Virus genome (UHGV): UHGV-0311442
Source of the DNA: a virus
DNA: 64,000 nt
Reading direction: 5' to 3' (one strand)
Shown here piece after piece: positions 16,803 through 58,616 of the stretch. The stretch's first letter is position 1, and each line of letters begins with the position of its first letter. The translations under genes and the position numbers were made by a program. The notes under the pieces were generated by a model, which made no database searches, was not told the origin of the DNA, and saw only the letters and a program-made list of their open reading frames with translations.

Positions 16803-17288
16803 TTAGTATTTAGATTGTTCTACGTATTTCTTAACCAGGTAAGCGAATTCAGCAACACCGATATCACCGAACCAAATCAGGTAACCGGGGTCGATGTTGT
16901 AGTAATAGCCGACGAGTTTCTTGGTGTGTGGGTTGTATAGCGTTACGATGTATTCCCAACCACAAGCGTTAGCTTTACAACCGCCGCTTTCAATCCAGAT
17001 TTTGTTGTTGATATTTACCGGATACATGTTACCGCCAGGGCCATCCATGTAACCTTTAGAGCCGAACATACCATCCAGTCCCACAGGGTCTAGTGTTTTA
17101 TCAACAACGGCTTTAAACGACTTATCGGTATCGTACAAGTCGTTGATGTTTGGGCACGCATTTGGCTGACCTTCCCAAGCGTTTCCATCGCAGGTAAGCA
17201 ATTCGTCTACGGAGGCCGCATCTACAGTTGGCGTGGCACCGATAAACAAGAAAACCAGAAAGAACATCAGTGTATGTAAACGTTTCAT
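16803..17288 (-). CDS. secreted Cys-containing protein 3 of 5 (signal peptide)
   Basis: MKRLHTLMFFLVFLFIGATPTVDAAS; AAGGAG RBS; several Cys in mature part. Confidence 0.55.
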   Translation of the reverse strand: MKRLHTLMFFLVFLFIGATPTVDAASVDELLTCDGNAWEGQPNACPNINDLYDTDKSFKAVVDKTLDPVGLDGMFGSKGYMDGPGGNMYPVNINNKIWIESGGCKANACGWEYIVTLYNPHTKKLVGYYYNIDPGYLIWFGDIGVAEFAYLVKKYVEQSKY

Positions 17289-17306
17289 TGTAACTACTCC
17301 TTTAGA

Positions 17307-17693
17307 TTATTCGGCAGGACGATTTAAGGTAACGCGTCCGATTAATTCGGCGTTGTGAAAGAAGTCCACAGCGGTATAATTACCAACGGATAATGGGTGA
17401 ATACTAACTGACATTACTTTCGGTTGTTCGCAAGCAATATCGGTTAGACGTTGGTAGACTTGCGCACGGGTGTCAGCAATGAGTAACCCCGTACACGCTT
17501 CACCACGCACTAAACGATAAACTTGCAGTTTACCGAAACTGCGCATTAACGTAGGCGTCTCATCCGGGTTGATAATCGGTGAGTCAGGAGCCGGTTCGTA
17601 ATAGCGGACATCCGAATCACCGAAAGCATAAGTGCCAGTAATTCCGACCGCACAGAAAATAATGATAGTATAAAGTATAGTTCTGATATTCAT
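17307..17693 (-). CDS. secreted protein 4 of 5 (signal peptide)
   Basis: MNIRTILYTIIIFCAVGITGTYAFG; start ambiguous (GTG 17699 or ATG 17693). Confidence 0.5.
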   Translation of the reverse strand: MNIRTILYTIIIFCAVGITGTYAFGDSDVRYYEPAPDSPIINPDETPTLMRSFGKLQVYRLVRGEACTGLLIADTRAQVYQRLTDIACEQPKVMSVSIHPLSVGNYTAVDFFHNAELIGRVTLNRPAE

Positions 17694-17721
17694 TTTCACG
17701 CACTCTAAAAAAGATTAATAG

Positions 17722-18183
17722 TTATTTGTTAGGACGGGTGTGCCCACAGTTTTGGAAGAAAGTTTCAGATAAACGATCGCCTTCTACGGTAAAGTTAGCG
17801 GCATCGTTACCATTGATACTCACACTGAAAGTTTTGGCATTACCGATAGCATTAACGAAAGCAACCCAAGCGTGTTCTGCCTTGTCACTACCGTCCACGG
17901 TAGGGATGTTATAGGTTTTGCCGTTTACGACAATATCCATCGTGTTATCTTCAGCGTTAGTTGCACCTACGGGTTCCCCGTAATACCAAACCATGCGACC
18001 GTAAAATTTGCGATTCGCAGTTTCAGTGTCACAGTTGATAGACAGTCCGTTTCCGGCGGTGTCTTCAATTTCGTAAACTGCCTGGCCAGGGTTTTGTATT
18101 TGTTCCCAGCTGTTGATAGCGGCGTGTGCAGTATTGAAACCGATTACGAAAAGGGCGATTAAAAAGGAAGTGAAGATTTTCAT
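17722..18183 (-). CDS. secreted protein 5 of 5 (signal peptide)
   Basis: MKIFTSFLIALFVIGFNTAHA; AAAGGAG RBS; first gene after promoter-like motif. Confidence 0.55.
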   Translation of the reverse strand: MKIFTSFLIALFVIGFNTAHAAINSWEQIQNPGQAVYEIEDTAGNGLSINCDTETANRKFYGRMVWYYGEPVGATNAEDNTMDIVVNGKTYNIPTVDGSDKAEHAWVAFVNAIGNAKTFSVSINGNDAANFTVEGDRLSETFFQNCGHTRPNK

Positions 18184-18230: not shown

Positions 18231-18267
18231 CTCACCTAAGTAATATATATCTGAAATTATTTTTAAT
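18231..18267 (-). promoter_or_regulatory. conserved promoter-like motif, copy 1
   Basis: minus-strand reading ATTTCAGATATATATTACTTAGGTGAG, then a 5'-UTR hairpin and RBS of 17722..18183. Confidence 0.45.
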
Positions 18268-18276
18268 ATTAACGAA

Positions 18277-18307
18277 CAAAAAATAAAAGGTGGGGGTAAA
18301 CCCCCAC
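18277..18307 (-). terminator. rho-independent terminator
   Basis: hairpin GTGGGGG-taaa-CCCCCAC with T-run on minus strand. Confidence 0.55.
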
Positions 18308-18312
18308 CGATG

Positions 18313-18891
18313 TTATACATCGAACCGGTACTGCCGGGAGTTAATGAGGAACTCGGTATTCAGCTCAATCCATTCGAGTAAATCACCCAACGGTAATCGG
18401 TTTGGGTTTTCTAACTCAATAGACGCTACCGGATAAGAGTTTACTAATTCCGTAATTGCCTCAATACCCTCTTGCGTTCCGTCGTCTTCTAAGGTGATTG
18501 TAAACGGCATATCGGTACGATCCGCATTAGGATTGTACAAACTGACTTTCGTTGCTTGGACAAACGCAGTCAGGTCGTCACGTATAATGCGTGTATCAGG
18601 CGCTAGAACTACCCAGAGATGTTGTCCTGGCTGGAGTTTACGTTTTGCGTAGTTTAAGAACGGGTTAGCCGGTAAGCTTTCCAAACCACTGCAAATGTTC
18701 CGTAAATGAATCCCTCGTGGGTCTTTATAGTCCACGCTGAAGATTCCTACCGGTTCCTTCGCTGCCTGTTTTATCAGAAAGACCAATACCGTGTCCGCTC
18801 TTTCTGGTAAGGAAAGCTCTATTCCCTCAAGCTCCCCATCGACGAGGTTTTCCAACCAAACGTCTTTTCGCATTTCTATTAATCGGTACAC
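18313..18891 (-). CDS. hypothetical protein (192 aa), GTG start
   Basis: GTG at 18891 preceded by GAGGTG at 5 nt. Confidence 0.5.
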   Translation of the reverse strand: MYRLIEMRKDVWLENLVDGELEGIELSLPERADTVLVFLIKQAAKEPVGIFSVDYKDPRGIHLRNICSGLESLPANPFLNYAKRKLQPGQHLWVVLAPDTRIIRDDLTAFVQATKVSLYNPNADRTDMPFTITLEDDGTQEGIEAITELVNSYPVASIELENPNRLPLGDLLEWIELNTEFLINSRQYRFDV

Positions 18892-18903
18892 GGTACCACC
18901 TCA

Positions 18904-19677
18904 CTATTGATTAAGTTTTACATCGGCAATAAACAGCAATTGTTTACCATGTTGCTGCACTTCTTTCCAACCTAGTTTCATAGCAGCGTCAACAACATCT
19001 AACATGCTGTAACGGGACATCAACGCGGTTGATTTTGTTCCTGACATTAAATAAAGCGGCTCATTAGGGCAACGGTCTCGAGCATCAGGAAGTTCTCGAA
19101 TAACCGCTGAGCCTTCGGGTGCGGTAACAACGTGAATCACGGTAAATGGTCTCTTATGCGTTAAATAGATACGAAATCCAACGTGTTCAGATTCATGAAA
19201 GATTTTCTTCACAACCACATCTTTTAGTGTTGTCTGAACATCATCCCCAGGTAATATCGTGGATTCACGAGAAACGAAACAACGACTATTTTCAATCGTG
19301 GAGAAATAATTACGTATCGGCAAACTGGCGTTATGATCGCGCAGTTTTTTGCTCAATAGATCGAAGTTCAGTTCTTTAACTTTTTCTAACCACTCTTTGG
19401 CTTGTTGAATGTAATAACTACCAACAGCGCGATAAGTTAATACCTTACCTGTGCTCACTTTCCAAAGCTTGATGCTTAGTGAATTTGGCTTATAGCGACG
19501 ATACTCACCCTGCGTATGGTTGATGCGCTCGTAACGCTCTACATCATCAACTGGTGCAGATTCGACCGATTGTAATTGCAGCGTACGATCTAATCTATCG
19601 GCAAATAGTAGTGATGATAGCGGGCCTTCGATCATATACGGTTCGGTTTTAAAGATATCGTCTAAATGGACTTTCAT
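18904..19677 (-). CDS. GW...QLLF-motif paralog family member (257 aa)
   Basis: C-terminus AMKLGWKEVQQHGKQLLFIADV shared with three neighbours. Confidence 0.55.
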   Translation of the reverse strand: MKVHLDDIFKTEPYMIEGPLSSLLFADRLDRTLQLQSVESAPVDDVERYERINHTQGEYRRYKPNSLSIKLWKVSTGKVLTYRAVGSYYIQQAKEWLEKVKELNFDLLSKKLRDHNASLPIRNYFSTIENSRCFVSRESTILPGDDVQTTLKDVVVKKIFHESEHVGFRIYLTHKRPFTVIHVVTAPEGSAVIRELPDARDRCPNEPLYLMSGTKSTALMSRYSMLDVVDAAMKLGWKEVQQHGKQLLFIADVKLNQ

Positions 19678-19744
19678 TTCTATTTCCTTCTTAACAAAAG
19701 CCGCGACTAAAGCGCGGCAGTTAGAGAAAGTGTAGTTTCACTTA

Positions 19745-20896
19745 TTAAAGGTCAGCAACAAACAGCAGCTGACTGCCGTACGGTTCGACAGATTTCCAAC
19801 CGTAATCTTTACCGATCGTCGTTAGATGGCCGGTATTTAACTTTTTGTCAACCATCCGCAGACGCATCATTAGCGTATTGGATTCTGCCGCATCGAGTAA
19901 CAACGCAGGTTCTTTTTCAGTGCGGTCATCCGCTTTCGGGAAGAAACTGTAATACTGACTTTTGGGCAGTTCGATTGTCAACGTATAGTTTTTCTTTGTA
20001 ATGAATAACGCCATCCCTTCGAAATTACAATCGAAACGATATTCCCAACCCGCCTCGGCTAAAACGTCTTTTAGCATTTCCATGACTTTAAGCTGGTTAA
20101 CGCTAGGCAGTCGGTAAGCTGCAAGGTTACTTGGAAATATGCGTATACCGTCGACGACACTATCGGTGGTTTCGTCAATAAGTTCAGGATAACGTTGCGA
20201 GAAAATATGATCGCTCTTGCTTTTCTCTTCGATGTCACGAATGAATTGGGCTATTTCGTCTCTTAAGCCAGACACTTGATTTTCTCCTTCGACTTCAATA
20301 ATCTGGTGGGGTTCGCCGCTAATTAAAATGTGGTAAACGATGTCGTCGGTAGAACGGTAAGTGAGTTTGATAGCTTTATCACTTAACATTTCGTAGCGGA
20401 AGAAACTTTCGTACCAAGTTGACCCGAAATCGTTTCGTGTAAGTTCCTGCTCAACTTTGATGGTTTTTGCTTCAAAACCAATTAACCCACTTAATAACGC
20501 GTGTTCTGGTTTAGTTAAAATGTTCGCACCGTGAAAGGGCACTTTCTCAAGCTGAAAACATAAATTACTGACTTTACCACTTGGGAAGACCTTAAACATA
20601 ATCTTCCGGCTGCTACTCTTTTCCCTAACAACGAGTTTACGGTAATTTAGTCCACAATTTGTGTAAACCGCGAACTTGTAACCTTCAATTTCTTCATCGT
20701 AAGTACAGACATCGACAGGTGCGATAATCTCATTGTATTCAGTAAGTACACAGCAGCCCAAGTTATAACCAAACAACTCACGTTGTAATGAAGATTCGAT
20801 GGTTAAGCTTGGTAGTGACCAAGTCCGATTATAGCATCTGTCCATCAGTTCTTTTAGGATCTTGGCATGTCCTGGCTTAGAAATAATATTTCGCAT
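19745..20896 (-). CDS. GW...QLLF-motif paralog family member (383 aa)
   Basis: C-terminus GKDYGWKSVEPYGSQLLFVADL. Confidence 0.55.
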   Translation of the reverse strand: MRNIISKPGHAKILKELMDRCYNRTWSLPSLTIESSLQRELFGYNLGCCVLTEYNEIIAPVDVCTYDEEIEGYKFAVYTNCGLNYRKLVVREKSSSRKIMFKVFPSGKVSNLCFQLEKVPFHGANILTKPEHALLSGLIGFEAKTIKVEQELTRNDFGSTWYESFFRYEMLSDKAIKLTYRSTDDIVYHILISGEPHQIIEVEGENQVSGLRDEIAQFIRDIEEKSKSDHIFSQRYPELIDETTDSVVDGIRIFPSNLAAYRLPSVNQLKVMEMLKDVLAEAGWEYRFDCNFEGMALFITKKNYTLTIELPKSQYYSFFPKADDRTEKEPALLLDAAESNTLMMRLRMVDKKLNTGHLTTIGKDYGWKSVEPYGSQLLFVADL

Positions 20897-20926
20897 TTTT
20901 ACTCTCCTTTAGGGTTTTTTTGTTAC

Positions 20927-21481
20927 TTAAGCAGGGTAAGCTAAAAACAACAACTGCTGGCCGAGTTTACGTACAGTATACCAACCGTGGGCTTTAGCGA
21001 CCGCGATCAACGTTTCCCAGTCATCAACATCACACTGCTCATTCCGAAGTCTTGTAAAGAGTGCCTCGGCTTCGCTTTGGTTTAATAACTTACCTGGGTT
21101 GTCTGGGGTGCAGTCAGTAGGGGTTGGAAAGAAAGTATACTGACGCGCTAGGAGAAAATCGACCAGATACTTGGTATTTTCTTTATAAACCAGCGTGGAA
21201 GACTTTCCTTCGTGGAAGAAGCTGCCTGTTTTCCAAGCGCTATCCCCCAGTAAGCTCTGAAGGTAATCTGTAAAGCCCGTTCTGAAAGGGATATGGTTTT
21301 TACGTGTGATGTTACGACGCAGCGGGGTTTCCTCTACAGCTTGTACACCCACCCCTACTATCATCGCACCTGGCTGAATAATGCTATTGGTCAGTACGGT
21401 ATAAGGACGGACAAAGAAATGTTCGCCTACGCCTTTTTCAAGGGTTTGGATAATTTCATTTTTCAGTTCAGTTTGAAACAT
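20927..21481 (-). CDS. GW...QLLF-motif paralog family member (184 aa)
   Basis: C-terminus AKAHGWYTVRKLGQQLLFLAYPA. Confidence 0.55.
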   Translation of the reverse strand: MFQTELKNEIIQTLEKGVGEHFFVRPYTVLTNSIIQPGAMIVGVGVQAVEETPLRRNITRKNHIPFRTGFTDYLQSLLGDSAWKTGSFFHEGKSSTLVYKENTKYLVDFLLARQYTFFPTPTDCTPDNPGKLLNQSEAEALFTRLRNEQCDVDDWETLIAVAKAHGWYTVRKLGQQLLFLAYPA

Positions 21482-21510
21482 GGTATATTCTCCTTTTTCG
21501 GTTTTCTTAA

Positions 21511-22248
21511 TTACGCGGTTTTAATTAACAGCAGATAGTCCTTCGTAATCTCAGCACAACCCCACCCTCTCATCGCGGCGATTTTACGAAGATCAATTTT
21601 CTCGTGATATCTCAATAAGGGATCGCCTGAGTTAATCTCAACCAGGTGTGTGGCTTTAGAAATCGTTTCTACATCAGGGATCTGTTTTGCTAAGTCGGAT
21701 GCAATTAACTCGATGATACGGTATCCCTCTAACACAGAAACATAGATGCGCAAACCATATAGCGTGCCTTCGTCTTCTAATGGACAAAGATCGATGCCGG
21801 GTCCAAGCAGTGATAACTCGACGTTATCGGGAAGGTTTTCTGCATTTCGGAGTAACCCTATCCCATTTCTAAACAGAGGGAAGTAAGAGAATAGTGGTGG
21901 TAAAGCCCAACCGTTCCCAATAAGCACATCAGCGATACTCGTAGGTGTGTTCGCAAGAAGACGAATGTGGTCAGCCACAACTTCAAGTTCGGCGTCACTG
22001 ATCAACTTATAGATTAACATGACACTGGTTTCGGTATTAATAACAAAGAAGACGCGGTTGGCGTAACTGCCTATCACGTATTCGTCAATCATACAGTCGA
22101 TAACGTCACTGTCTGGATAATCTTCAGGTTTAATTGTTCCAGCATCGATTAACTTAGCAGGTTGCGATTGTTTTATTAGTTCGTTAACCACCGTAGAAGA
22201 AAGTTCTAAACTGGTGTTGGTAAAGATATCGTCTAATAATTCTTTCAT
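21511..22248 (-). CDS. GW...LL-motif paralog family member, divergent (245 aa)
   Basis: C-terminus AAMRGWGCAEITKDYLLLIKTA. Confidence 0.5.
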   Translation of the reverse strand: MKELLDDIFTNTSLELSSTVVNELIKQSQPAKLIDAGTIKPEDYPDSDVIDCMIDEYVIGSYANRVFFVINTETSVMLIYKLISDAELEVVADHIRLLANTPTSIADVLIGNGWALPPLFSYFPLFRNGIGLLRNAENLPDNVELSLLGPGIDLCPLEDEGTLYGLRIYVSVLEGYRIIELIASDLAKQIPDVETISKATHLVEINSGDPLLRYHEKIDLRKIAAMRGWGCAEITKDYLLLIKTA

Positions 22249-22516
22249 GATTTACTCGCTAATCCCAATGAAGGGAAGGCTATTATTATGGATTGTAAAA
22301 GAGGTATAAGGAAGTCACTACGTTCCTCTGGGAAGAGTATGTCGGTATACTCCGTATACCTCCGCTATTTATATCCGTATACATAATGCCCCCTACCCCC
22401 TACCGGTATCCCGAGTAGCAGAATAAAGGGACATAATGTAATTTTTAGTAACCTTTAACGAAAGGTACTAAAAGGGTAACGTGTCCGTAGGGACTGAACT
22501 GGTACTTCAGTCCCTA

Positions 22517-22548
22517 TTCACTTAAGTAAAATATATCTGAAATCAATT
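22517..22548 (-). promoter_or_regulatory. conserved promoter-like motif, copy 2 (variant)
   Basis: minus-strand reading GATTTCAGATATATTTTACTTAAGTGAA followed by a hairpin; lies about 265 nt upstream of 21511..22248. Confidence 0.4.
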
Positions 22549-22568
22549 CCGATCTAAGGAACGTCCCG

Positions 22569-23534
22569 ATGGAGAAATCCAGTGTTGATTTTTTCTCAAT
22601 TGGTATCGTCGCGGAAGACAAACCCCGTGGTACAGATCGGGTAAAAGTGATACCAATTGAAACTAACTTTGCTAACCCTACCGTGGTGCAATCTGTTTCT
22701 TCAGCAACTGAAAAGACGCATGAAACGTCTGGTGCAACAGATAACCTAACCATTAAGACGGGTAACACGATAACAGCAAAGTGGTGGAAGTTTAACTCCA
22801 ACCGAATTAATTCCCCTGACGTTAAACGAGAAGACTACGTTATCTTGTTACGTTTGGGGAAAACCGATATTTATTTTTGGATTGATCTGAACTTCGCTAA
22901 CGTTAAGCGATTAGAAGATGCGGTTTATGCGTGGTCGGCTGACCCTGAAAACCAAATGGCGGATGACTTGTCCAATGCGTATGTGTTGAACGTTTCGACG
23001 ATTGACAAACATATCACGCTAAGAACAAGTATGGTGAATGGCGAGAAAGCGGCGTGGTTGTTTCAGTTTGATAATGCAAACGGTACGTGGCAGTGCGTTG
23101 ACCATAAAGGAAACAAGTATTACATTAACTCGGTTGAAGATGATCTCGGGTTTGAGAATGCGATGCTTTCAAAAGTGAACATCAACAAAGAAGATGCGTT
23201 CATTTATTCAAAGCGTTCTATTAACCTGGAAACGAAAACGATTAATGAAAAATGCGAAGTTCGCAATACAGAAGCAGCGAAATCCGTTACGTTTAAAACA
23301 CAAACCTGGTTAACGGAAGCGGGAAGTTCGACAACGTTTAAAACGCCGAACTTTAAACAAGAAGGGAAGGAAGCGATGTTCACCGGTAATTTGGAAATCG
23401 CTAAGAACTTCAAATACGGTGGTACGGGTGAAGGTGTGGGTGTCTTTACGGTTAAAGATGCTGTTATTTCCGGTATTACCTTTAGCGTTCACATTCACCA
23501 AGGTAAACATGGTCCGACATCACCTCCGCAATAA
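22569..23534 (+). CDS. hypothetical protein (321 aa), possibly virion-associated
   Basis: ORF track; AAGGA RBS; plus-strand gene isolated between minus-strand blocks. Confidence 0.5.
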   Translation: MEKSSVDFFSIGIVAEDKPRGTDRVKVIPIETNFANPTVVQSVSSATEKTHETSGATDNLTIKTGNTITAKWWKFNSNRINSPDVKREDYVILLRLGKTDIYFWIDLNFANVKRLEDAVYAWSADPENQMADDLSNAYVLNVSTIDKHITLRTSMVNGEKAAWLFQFDNANGTWQCVDHKGNKYYINSVEDDLGFENAMLSKVNINKEDAFIYSKRSINLETKTINEKCEVRNTEAAKSVTFKTQTWLTEAGSSTTFKTPNFKQEGKEAMFTGNLEIAKNFKYGGTGEGVGVFTVKDAVISGITFSVHIHQGKHGPTSPPQ

Positions 23535-23740
23535 TTCCCCTTTTTCTTACGTTGTTTTTATATATTGTGACCTGACGTTGGTAAAACTTTTTATCAACAC
23601 TTTTCTTAAACCCATCGTTTAGTTAAGCAGGCCACTTTTTTCGCGCACTCTACTCCTCCCTACGGGGAGGAGCTATCTTATGCTTCGGTTGTAACACACG
23701 TCGGTCTTAGACCACCTTCCTTTTGAAATGGAGAGCTGTT

Positions 23741-23950
23741 ATGTCTATTAAAGAGTTCTCTTCTGCTGAGCATATTCCAGAAGAGTTTAAGAAAATCGGT
23801 AACGTTAGCGCCTTCGGCGATACCGTTGATCATGTAACTGGTAAGCTGGCTGCTGAAGCCGAAAAAATTGGCGGCGACGCATTCAAAGTTATCGGTATTT
23901 CCGGCAACAACAAACTGCACGGTAACGCGATTGTCTACAAAAAAGACTAA
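23741..23950 (+). CDS. DUF1471 (BhsA/YhcN-family)-like small protein without signal peptide
   Basis: GDTVDHVTGKLAAEAEKIGGDAFKVIGISGNNKLHGNAIVYK matches the DUF1471 domain pattern; GGAG RBS; flanked by hairpins. Confidence 0.55.
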   Translation: MSIKEFSSAEHIPEEFKKIGNVSAFGDTVDHVTGKLAAEAEKIGGDAFKVIGISGNNKLHGNAIVYKKD

Positions 23951-54676: not shown

Positions 54677-54710
54677 CTCACCTAAGTAATATATATCTGA
54701 AATTATTTTT
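54677..54710 (-). promoter_or_regulatory. conserved promoter-like motif, copy 3
   Basis: minus-strand reading AATAATTTCAGATATATATTACTTAGGTGAGAG, then hairpin and RBS of 54135..54629. Confidence 0.45.
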
Positions 54711-58584: not shown

Positions 58585-58616
58585 CTCCCCTAGGTAATAT
58601 ATATCTGAGAAAAAAT
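58585..58616 (-). promoter_or_regulatory. conserved promoter-like motif, copy 4
   Basis: minus-strand reading TTCTCAGATATATATTACCTAGGGGAGAG then hairpin GAGTGAA...TTCACTC and RBS. Confidence 0.45.

Follow-up and report, generated by a model that had tools for sequence, protein, structure and literature searches.

What do four adjacent genes with divergent bodies and a common C-terminal end contribute to a jumbo phage? The genes, here called A to D, lie in UHGV virus genome UHGV-0311442; the window, i.e., the whole stretch of DNA analyzed, is 64,000 nucleotides (nt) long. The DNA comes from a giant (~225 kb) enterobacterial jumbo phage with Salmonella phage SPN3US and Erwinia phage phiEaH2 among its relatives. 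In the jumbo phages allied to phiKZ and SPN3US, early genes without an assigned function number in the hundreds, and some of them decide success against host immunity. A to D are tandem paralogs and new members of an existing but uncharacterized family of proteins that occurs specifically in phiKZ-related jumbo phages; D is a weak member.

The open reading frame (ORF) list places the four genes, of 184-383 amino acids (aa), side by side on the minus strand, as the initial annotation had described. The shared signature that it proposed is also borne out. Proteins A, B, and C end in GW..V...G.QLLF.A and D ends in a degenerate form of it (A, GWKEVQQHGKQLLFIA; B, GWKSVEPYGSQLLFVA; C, GWYTVRKLGQQLLFLA; D, GWGCAEITKDYLLLIK). 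MAFFT puts the motif of all four in register, and the motif is kept in SPN3US, phiEaH2, CR5, Derbicus, Phobos, and Machina. A hidden Markov model (HMM) made from non-window members only detected A (E-value 3.5e-18), B (1.3e-16), and C (2.9e-16) among the 602 six-frame ORFs of the window, and none of the other ORFs fell below an E-value of 0.9. These scores indicate that the motif is real and non-random for A, B, and C and marginal for D. Its conserved residues are encoded by different codons in A, B, and C, which points to an old duplication and purifying selection, with the module held at the protein level. Recent gene conversion as the cause of the identity was rejected on the same grounds.

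The genes had first been described as a conserved tail on divergent bodies. The variable N-termini and the shared module stand, but the similarity extends well beyond the tail. In blastp, residues 147-253 of A align with residues 271-383 of B (117 aa, E 2e-10), and residues 211-381 of B span all of C (184 aa, E 9e-12). The signature, 16 residues long, amounts to just the closing beta-hairpin of a module of 60-75 aa (~65 residues), which starts with a second, even more conserved element, [IL]PDxxDR[ST]xN[DE]PxYLMS[AS]. The C-terminus of A matches the C-terminal ends of phrog_26772, 33648, 24489, and 18480, and B also matches the C-terminal ends of the PHROG models. Searches with A by tblastn matched proteins of SPN3US, CR5, Phobos, and Derbicus over the last ~65 aa only.

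AlphaFold2 (AF2) models were obtained for C (predicted local distance difference test (pLDDT) 84, predicted template modeling score (pTM) 0.70) and B (pLDDT 75.8). In the model of C, residues 1-113 form the N-terminal alpha/beta core, with two helices and five strands. The module follows as strand-helix-helix-hairpin, with a strand at 130-133, helices at 135-147 and 155-164, and a hairpin at 169-173/176-180. The strand is the YLMS element and the hairpin is GW..V / QLLF, the motif noticed at first. The last 60-75 residues are thereby modeled as a small autonomous alpha/beta module. The model of B has a low-confidence, disordered linker at residues 200-208. A to D are all without a signal peptide or membrane segment, and each is predicted to be a soluble multi-domain protein.

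Searches of the window proteins and stand-alone modules against Pfam, NCBIfam, and PADLOC gave no meaningful family match; the sole PADLOC match was DpdF (E 0.005, 13 bits). PDB sequence profiles gave no match, and no enzyme or toxin domain or fold was recognizable in the variable regions. The weak structural matches of C recur in winged-helix and PAS-like domains, a resemblance and not an assignment. This resemblance would suit one-component-type regulators that tune early transcription, with the module as a truncated winged-helix nucleic-acid binder and PAS-like alpha/beta N-termini as sensors. Pfam and NCBIfam returned no helix-turn-helix family match, however, and the modules do not have the basic surface of such a binder (median isoelectric point (pI) 6.3), and the regulator reading is unlikely.

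The modules are near neutral or acidic, with a median net charge of 0, and their invariant residues sit in the loop and hairpin, not in the helices. These two properties favor protein docking or oligomerization. The preferred reading, held tentatively and at a little short of an even chance, is that the module is a protein docking or oligomerization element and the variable domains are specificity determinants in a fast-evolving interaction.

A narrower version is that the module serves mainly in self-association, so that co-expressed paralogs form mixed oligomers displaying several N-terminal domains. Three or four module proteins come from one predicted transcription unit, and the N-terminal dimerization domain of O-methyltransferase is among the closest weak structural neighbors. 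Terminal beta-hairpins commonly serve in edge-strand pairing. Most relatives are single-copy, however, and mixed oligomers therefore cannot be the ancestral role. This version is quite unlikely, and it overlaps with docking instead of excluding it.

A HicA-like toxin was considered because of the motif spacing and rejected. The HicA pattern 'GF...R..GSH..f' has a superficially similar spacing, in which a helix is followed by a G-aromatic pair and then by G-x-polar and hydrophobic residues. A Q replaces the catalytic His in A, B, C, and relatives, and the module protein ends after the second strand. There is no Pfam HicA_toxin match, and the topology is different.

Gene D is the marginal member. 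The external module HMM did not detect it (E 8.8). It aligns with A in blastp at E 0.005 over 133 aa, and hhalign of the ortholog profiles of D and A gives E 1.4e-4 over 118 columns with a probability of 52%. Profile comparisons of D with C and of D with B were not significant, and D is thus linked to the family only through A. At the DNA level, A and D have a common 5' end of 28 nt that is 82% identical and encodes MK..LDDIF.

The module is rare. When 1.84 billion cluster representatives were searched exhaustively with HMMER, only 58 proteins were recovered; in these, the module either lies at the very C-terminus (proteins of 129-534 aa) or makes up an entire protein of 72-125 aa. Its context is that of phiKZ-related jumbo phages wherever this is readable, and the N-termini in front of it are unrelated. 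A megablast search of the paralog locus against 50,697 phage records gave no match. The orphan N-terminal region of B (~205 residues) has only 17 homologs in 5.8 billion proteins, all of them orthologs, and structural neighbors in BFVD are only uncharacterized jumbo-phage proteins.

The best-known relatives are SPN3US gp175 (SPN3US_0175, 412 aa) and phiEaH2 gp097 (223 aa), which have the C-terminal module in common with A to C. The SPN3US module reads ...EPAYLMSAK...GWKEVTKYGRQLLFVADLRLL, like that of the window. The position is also the same. In the window, as in these phages, the module genes adjoin a baseplate gene (phrog_3216), are divergent from it, and lie upstream of a phrog_20879 gene (gene E), whose orthologs in SPN3US and phiEaH2 are likewise close to the module gene. 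The difference is in copy number: SPN3US, phiEaH2, CR5, Derbicus, Phobos, Machina, and ChrisDB have one copy each at this locus, whereas the window has four genes in tandem and its lineage has three recognizable module copies plus D. The N-terminal regions of the SPN3US-type homologs are unrelated to those of the window paralogs by BLAST, and the core domain common to A to D is not detectably present in gp175. A CoreGenes table gives gp175 as common to phiEaH2 and CR5, not phiKZ. The matching PHROGs 33648, 24489, 26772, 18480, and 21313 are all of 'unknown function'. Literature searches found nothing on the function of SPN3US gp175 and nothing relevant on chimallivirus hypervariable early genes.

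The stand-alone proteins (72-125 aa; e.g., P0150, P0155, and P0178) of OBP/N1M2/pEt-SU-like jumbo phages consist of the module alone. They keep the invariant P-D..DR[ST].N.P ... GW..V...G.Q pattern of the window module but have QLLL or QxLLIA in place of QLLF and no N-terminal domain. The stand-alone genes that can be placed (OBP/N1M2-like) have glutaredoxin and thymidylate kinase genes as neighbors, unlike the window locus, and a viral-contig search with one stand-alone protein found no related loci. The initial annotation had read the C-terminal element as a shared interaction or targeting module. It is a genuine shared module, but as it also occurs as a whole protein it is a self-sufficient domain and not merely a targeting tail.

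A localization domain would send its carriers to a phage-built compartment, e.g., the phage-nucleus shell or importer or an early vesicle. The confinement of the family to phiKZ-related jumbo phages, wherever its context is readable, agrees with this, and a sorting domain would be expected to look like this one, a common folded unit attached to unrelated cargo. Stand-alone modules would nevertheless be tags without cargo. Moreover, cargo of the phage nucleus is reported to be chosen by surface residues of the folded protein and not by a terminal signal sequence (review, PMC12908238), which disfavors the localization reading and leaves it distinctly improbable.

The paralogs change far faster than their surroundings. 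Compared with five related contigs, the flanking structural genes of the window are 90-99% identical, with a ratio of nonsynonymous to synonymous substitution (omega) of 0.02-0.09. Omega is 0.11-0.35 for A to D, which also contain swapped blocks with saturated synonymous divergence (dS), and their amino-acid change is 3-10 times faster than that of the flanking structural genes. D is 99% identical in the closest contig, L004; in the three divergent contigs with a D gene the identity is 48-66%, and the flanking genes there are 91-98% identical. C is 95% identical in L004 and 46-74% identical in the four divergent contigs. In two of these, L010 and L014, the N-terminal two thirds of C are 15-50% identical and the last 40 residues 95-100%.

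Gene B has a mosaic structure. Its residues 1-200 are ~99% identical in L004 and residues 200-360 only 30-75%, whereas in L013 residues 1-200 are 15-50% identical and residues 220-383 are 85-100%. The recombination breakpoint (~codon 200-210) coincides with the predicted inter-domain linker. Domains are exchanged as cassettes, at their boundaries, among co-circulating phages. The same polarity is seen in the CR5-like group, in which 12 cluster representatives have a median identity of 18% in their N-termini versus 81% in the 60-aa module. The module is under strong purifying selection, with quick divergence of the regions in front of it.

Gene number also varies. The 245-184-383-257 aa array is kept across the lineage of the window, as seen in related contigs. 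In one relative, L010 (5649-7001 vs window 21511-22568), gene D is wholly missing, so that it has three copies and not four; it nevertheless retains a leader of ~340 nt and the promoter-like motif. Paralog copy number at the locus is polymorphic.

This architecture has counterparts. T4 internal proteins with a capsid-targeting sequence and polymorphic toxins combine a conserved trafficking or docking part with a variable payload. The likeness lies in a conserved part on variable parts, in paralogs, and in recombination at the junction. The conserved part is C-terminal here, however, and the SPN3US homolog is not packaged. Also unlike polymorphic toxins, A to D have no recognizable toxin or enzyme domain, and no immunity gene is evident.

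A more specific proposal takes the exchange of domains further. The module would be a docking domain that plugs interchangeable 'bait' domains into a conserved machine of the phage or host, so that recombination-shuffled adaptors neutralize or relocate a diversity of host defense proteins and the four-gene array is an expanded repertoire. Candidates for this machine would include the shell or importer of the nucleus, the vesicle of early infection, a host protease, and the ribosome. This proposal is quite improbable as it stands.

The timing of the genes is suggested by an AT-rich motif of 26 nt, ATTTCAGATATATWTTACTTARGTGA, on the minus strand in front of D (Table 1). Sites occur at 22518-22543, 18232-18257, and 54678-54703, all on the minus strand, with a fourth, partial copy at 58591-58605. 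The motif ATTTCAGATATATNTTACTTANGTGA has three exact matches in the window where 0 are expected. All copies stand in front of blocks of non-structural genes on the minus strand. A hairpin comes after each of them and a ribosome-binding site and ATG after three, and two are preceded by a terminator. Related contigs keep the motif at the equivalent position, and it is also present in phiEaH2. Conserved AT-rich motifs that can be detected bioinformatically mark the early promoters of the virion RNA polymerase in jumbo phages (review, PMC7598289). The motif probably represents the class of early promoters that the virion RNA polymerase uses in this phage, and early timing of A to D is predicted from it. 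A sigma-70 promoter scan gave nothing above chance, and CATTATGT, considered as a late-type TATG element in the leader, was not enriched and was dropped.

The succession of promoter-like motif, hairpin, and terminator makes D-C-B-A-E one predicted transcription unit. The next copy of the motif (18232-18257) follows the terminator that ends this unit. Within it, the GC-rich hairpin between B and A is a possible internal terminator or attenuator. The leader of D may be the remnant of a gene or a regulatory RNA; at the leader position, SPN3US and phiEaH2 carry a 105-aa gene (gp174 / gp096), and the remnant would be of this type.

Table 1. Positions of the paralogs, their modules, and associated signals in the window
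Feature	Position (nt)	Strand	Description
Gene A	18904-19677	minus	257 aa; N-terminal region, core domain, and best-preserved module
Gene A module	18907-19095	minus	Residues ~195-257; LPDARDRCPNEPLYLMS...GWKEVQQHGKQLLFIA
Gene B	19745-20896	minus	383 aa; orphan N-terminal region at residues 1-~205, core at ~210-310
Gene B module	19748-19945	minus	Residues ~318-383
Gene C	20927-21481	minus	184 aa; minimal paralog, alpha/beta core (residues 1-113) and module
Gene C module	20930-21133	minus	Residues ~117-184
Gene D	21511-22248	minus	245 aa; divergent paralog, closest to A
Gene D degenerate module	21514-21684	minus	Residues ~189-245
Gene E	18313-18891	minus	192 aa; phrog_20879, E 3e-33; conserved last gene of the D-C-B-A-E unit
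Promoter-like motif	22518-22543	minus	26 nt, AT-rich, ATTTCAGATATATTTTACTTAAGTGA; putative early (virion RNA polymerase) promoter of D-C-B-A-E
Stem-loop	22490-22514	minus	9-bp stem, GGGACTGAA/TTCAGTCCC, directly after the promoter-like motif; read from the sequence
Leader	22249-22517	minus	Unusually long (~270 nt), untranslated, two hairpins; between motif and D
GC-rich hairpin and T-run	19700-19718	minus	Between B and A; match to a terminator-like consensus
Strong intrinsic terminator	18289-18308	minus	8-bp stem with 7 GC pairs, T-run; ends the D-C-B-A-E unit

The position of the locus raises the possibility of virion or tail-associated host-range proteins. A to D abut the baseplate gene (phrog_3216) and genes of large tail proteins, and their hypervariability and mosaicism are typical of receptor-binding genes. 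The polarity is nonetheless opposite to that of tail fibers, with the C-terminus conserved and the N-terminus variable, and the genes are encoded on the other strand, downstream of a promoter motif of the early type. The AF2 models of B and C are globular alpha/beta and have no fiber-like, beta-helix, or trimeric features, and in OBP-like phages stand-alone modules are found among nucleotide-metabolism genes. Mass spectrometry of purified SPN3US virions lists gp167-171, gp173, and then gp193 (Table S4, PMC5105663). The neighbors of gp175 are thus present and gp175 itself is absent, and the idea of a tail or virion protein was rejected on this ground as highly improbable. A to D are probably early, non-structural proteins.

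Taken with this, the promoter motif, rapid change, mosaic alleles, and varying copy number fit a host-interaction role. The anti-defense or host take-over role proposed in the initial annotation is plausible for A to D. Under the preferred docking reading, the injected virion RNA polymerase would transcribe D-C-B-A-E early, as a single unit, and A to D would act as early cytoplasmic accessory proteins. The module would bind one conserved partner, of the phage or the host, via its invariant PDxxDR[ST]xNxP loop and its GW...GxQ hairpin. Differing specificities toward targets that change rapidly, e.g., host defense, host factors, or competing phages, would come from the variable N-terminal domains. 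With three or four paralogs, the one shared docking function would thus reach a wider range of targets.

Several points count against this account. Protein binding by the module is itself a proposal. Stand-alone modules show that the module can act without a variable domain, so the variable parts may regulate the module and not bind targets. D is without the module signature, and the four proteins need not all work alike. No gene-wide omega above 1 was found among A to D, and relaxed constraint together with recombination, instead of an arms race, could account for the fast change. The early timing is a prediction from a sequence motif.

The locus defines a compact, undescribed domain without a Pfam entry and without a solved or confidently matched structure. 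The module is confined to phiKZ-related jumbo phages, fused to very fast-changing partners, and amplified in a lineage common in enterobacterial sequencing data. The 65-residue module is a possible bait for a conserved partner, and the variable domains offer a natural library for host-specific effects. Should the module turn out to dock anti-defense adaptors, its presence would help to locate such genes in other jumbo phages. If the docking reading is false, the module family is one more lineage-specific accessory family.

Around the paralogs, the baseplate protein (22569-23534) is 73% identical to its phiEaH2 and Stratton counterparts and matches phrog_3216 at E 9e-114. Gene E was tried as a fifth paralog and rejected, as hhalign of E against the family was not significant. 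In phiEaH2, gp101 and gp098 (L002 4385-4957 and 6135-6716) end in a helix and G-F-x-x hydrophobic tails (QLGFKRTATAFVI and QHGFQQHRAIYIP). Judging from a vague hairpin resemblance, these two could be very divergent relatives of the module.

Close relatives of the lineage are contigs of ~220-226 kb from metagenomes and from Shigella, Salmonella, and E. coli assemblies. Two relatives are deposited as circular 'plasmids' within complete genomes of enterobacteria: NZ_CP173450.1 (L015) of E. coli 98232, with 221,873 bp, and NZ_CP134650.1 (H100) of Enterobacter ludwigii, with 222,441 bp. Such deposits could be due to a carrier state, pseudolysogeny, or culture contamination.

The paralog unit is followed just downstream by three small minus-strand ORFs of 161, 130, and 153 aa (16803-18183) with signal-peptide-like N-termini; one of them is YfjT-like (PF27224 in relatives). 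On the other side, a DUF1471/BhsA-like gene of 69-75 aa (23723-23950, plus strand) lies between the baseplate gene and a 420-aa gene. Together, these genes appear to be a cluster of phage-encoded envelope or periplasmic proteins.

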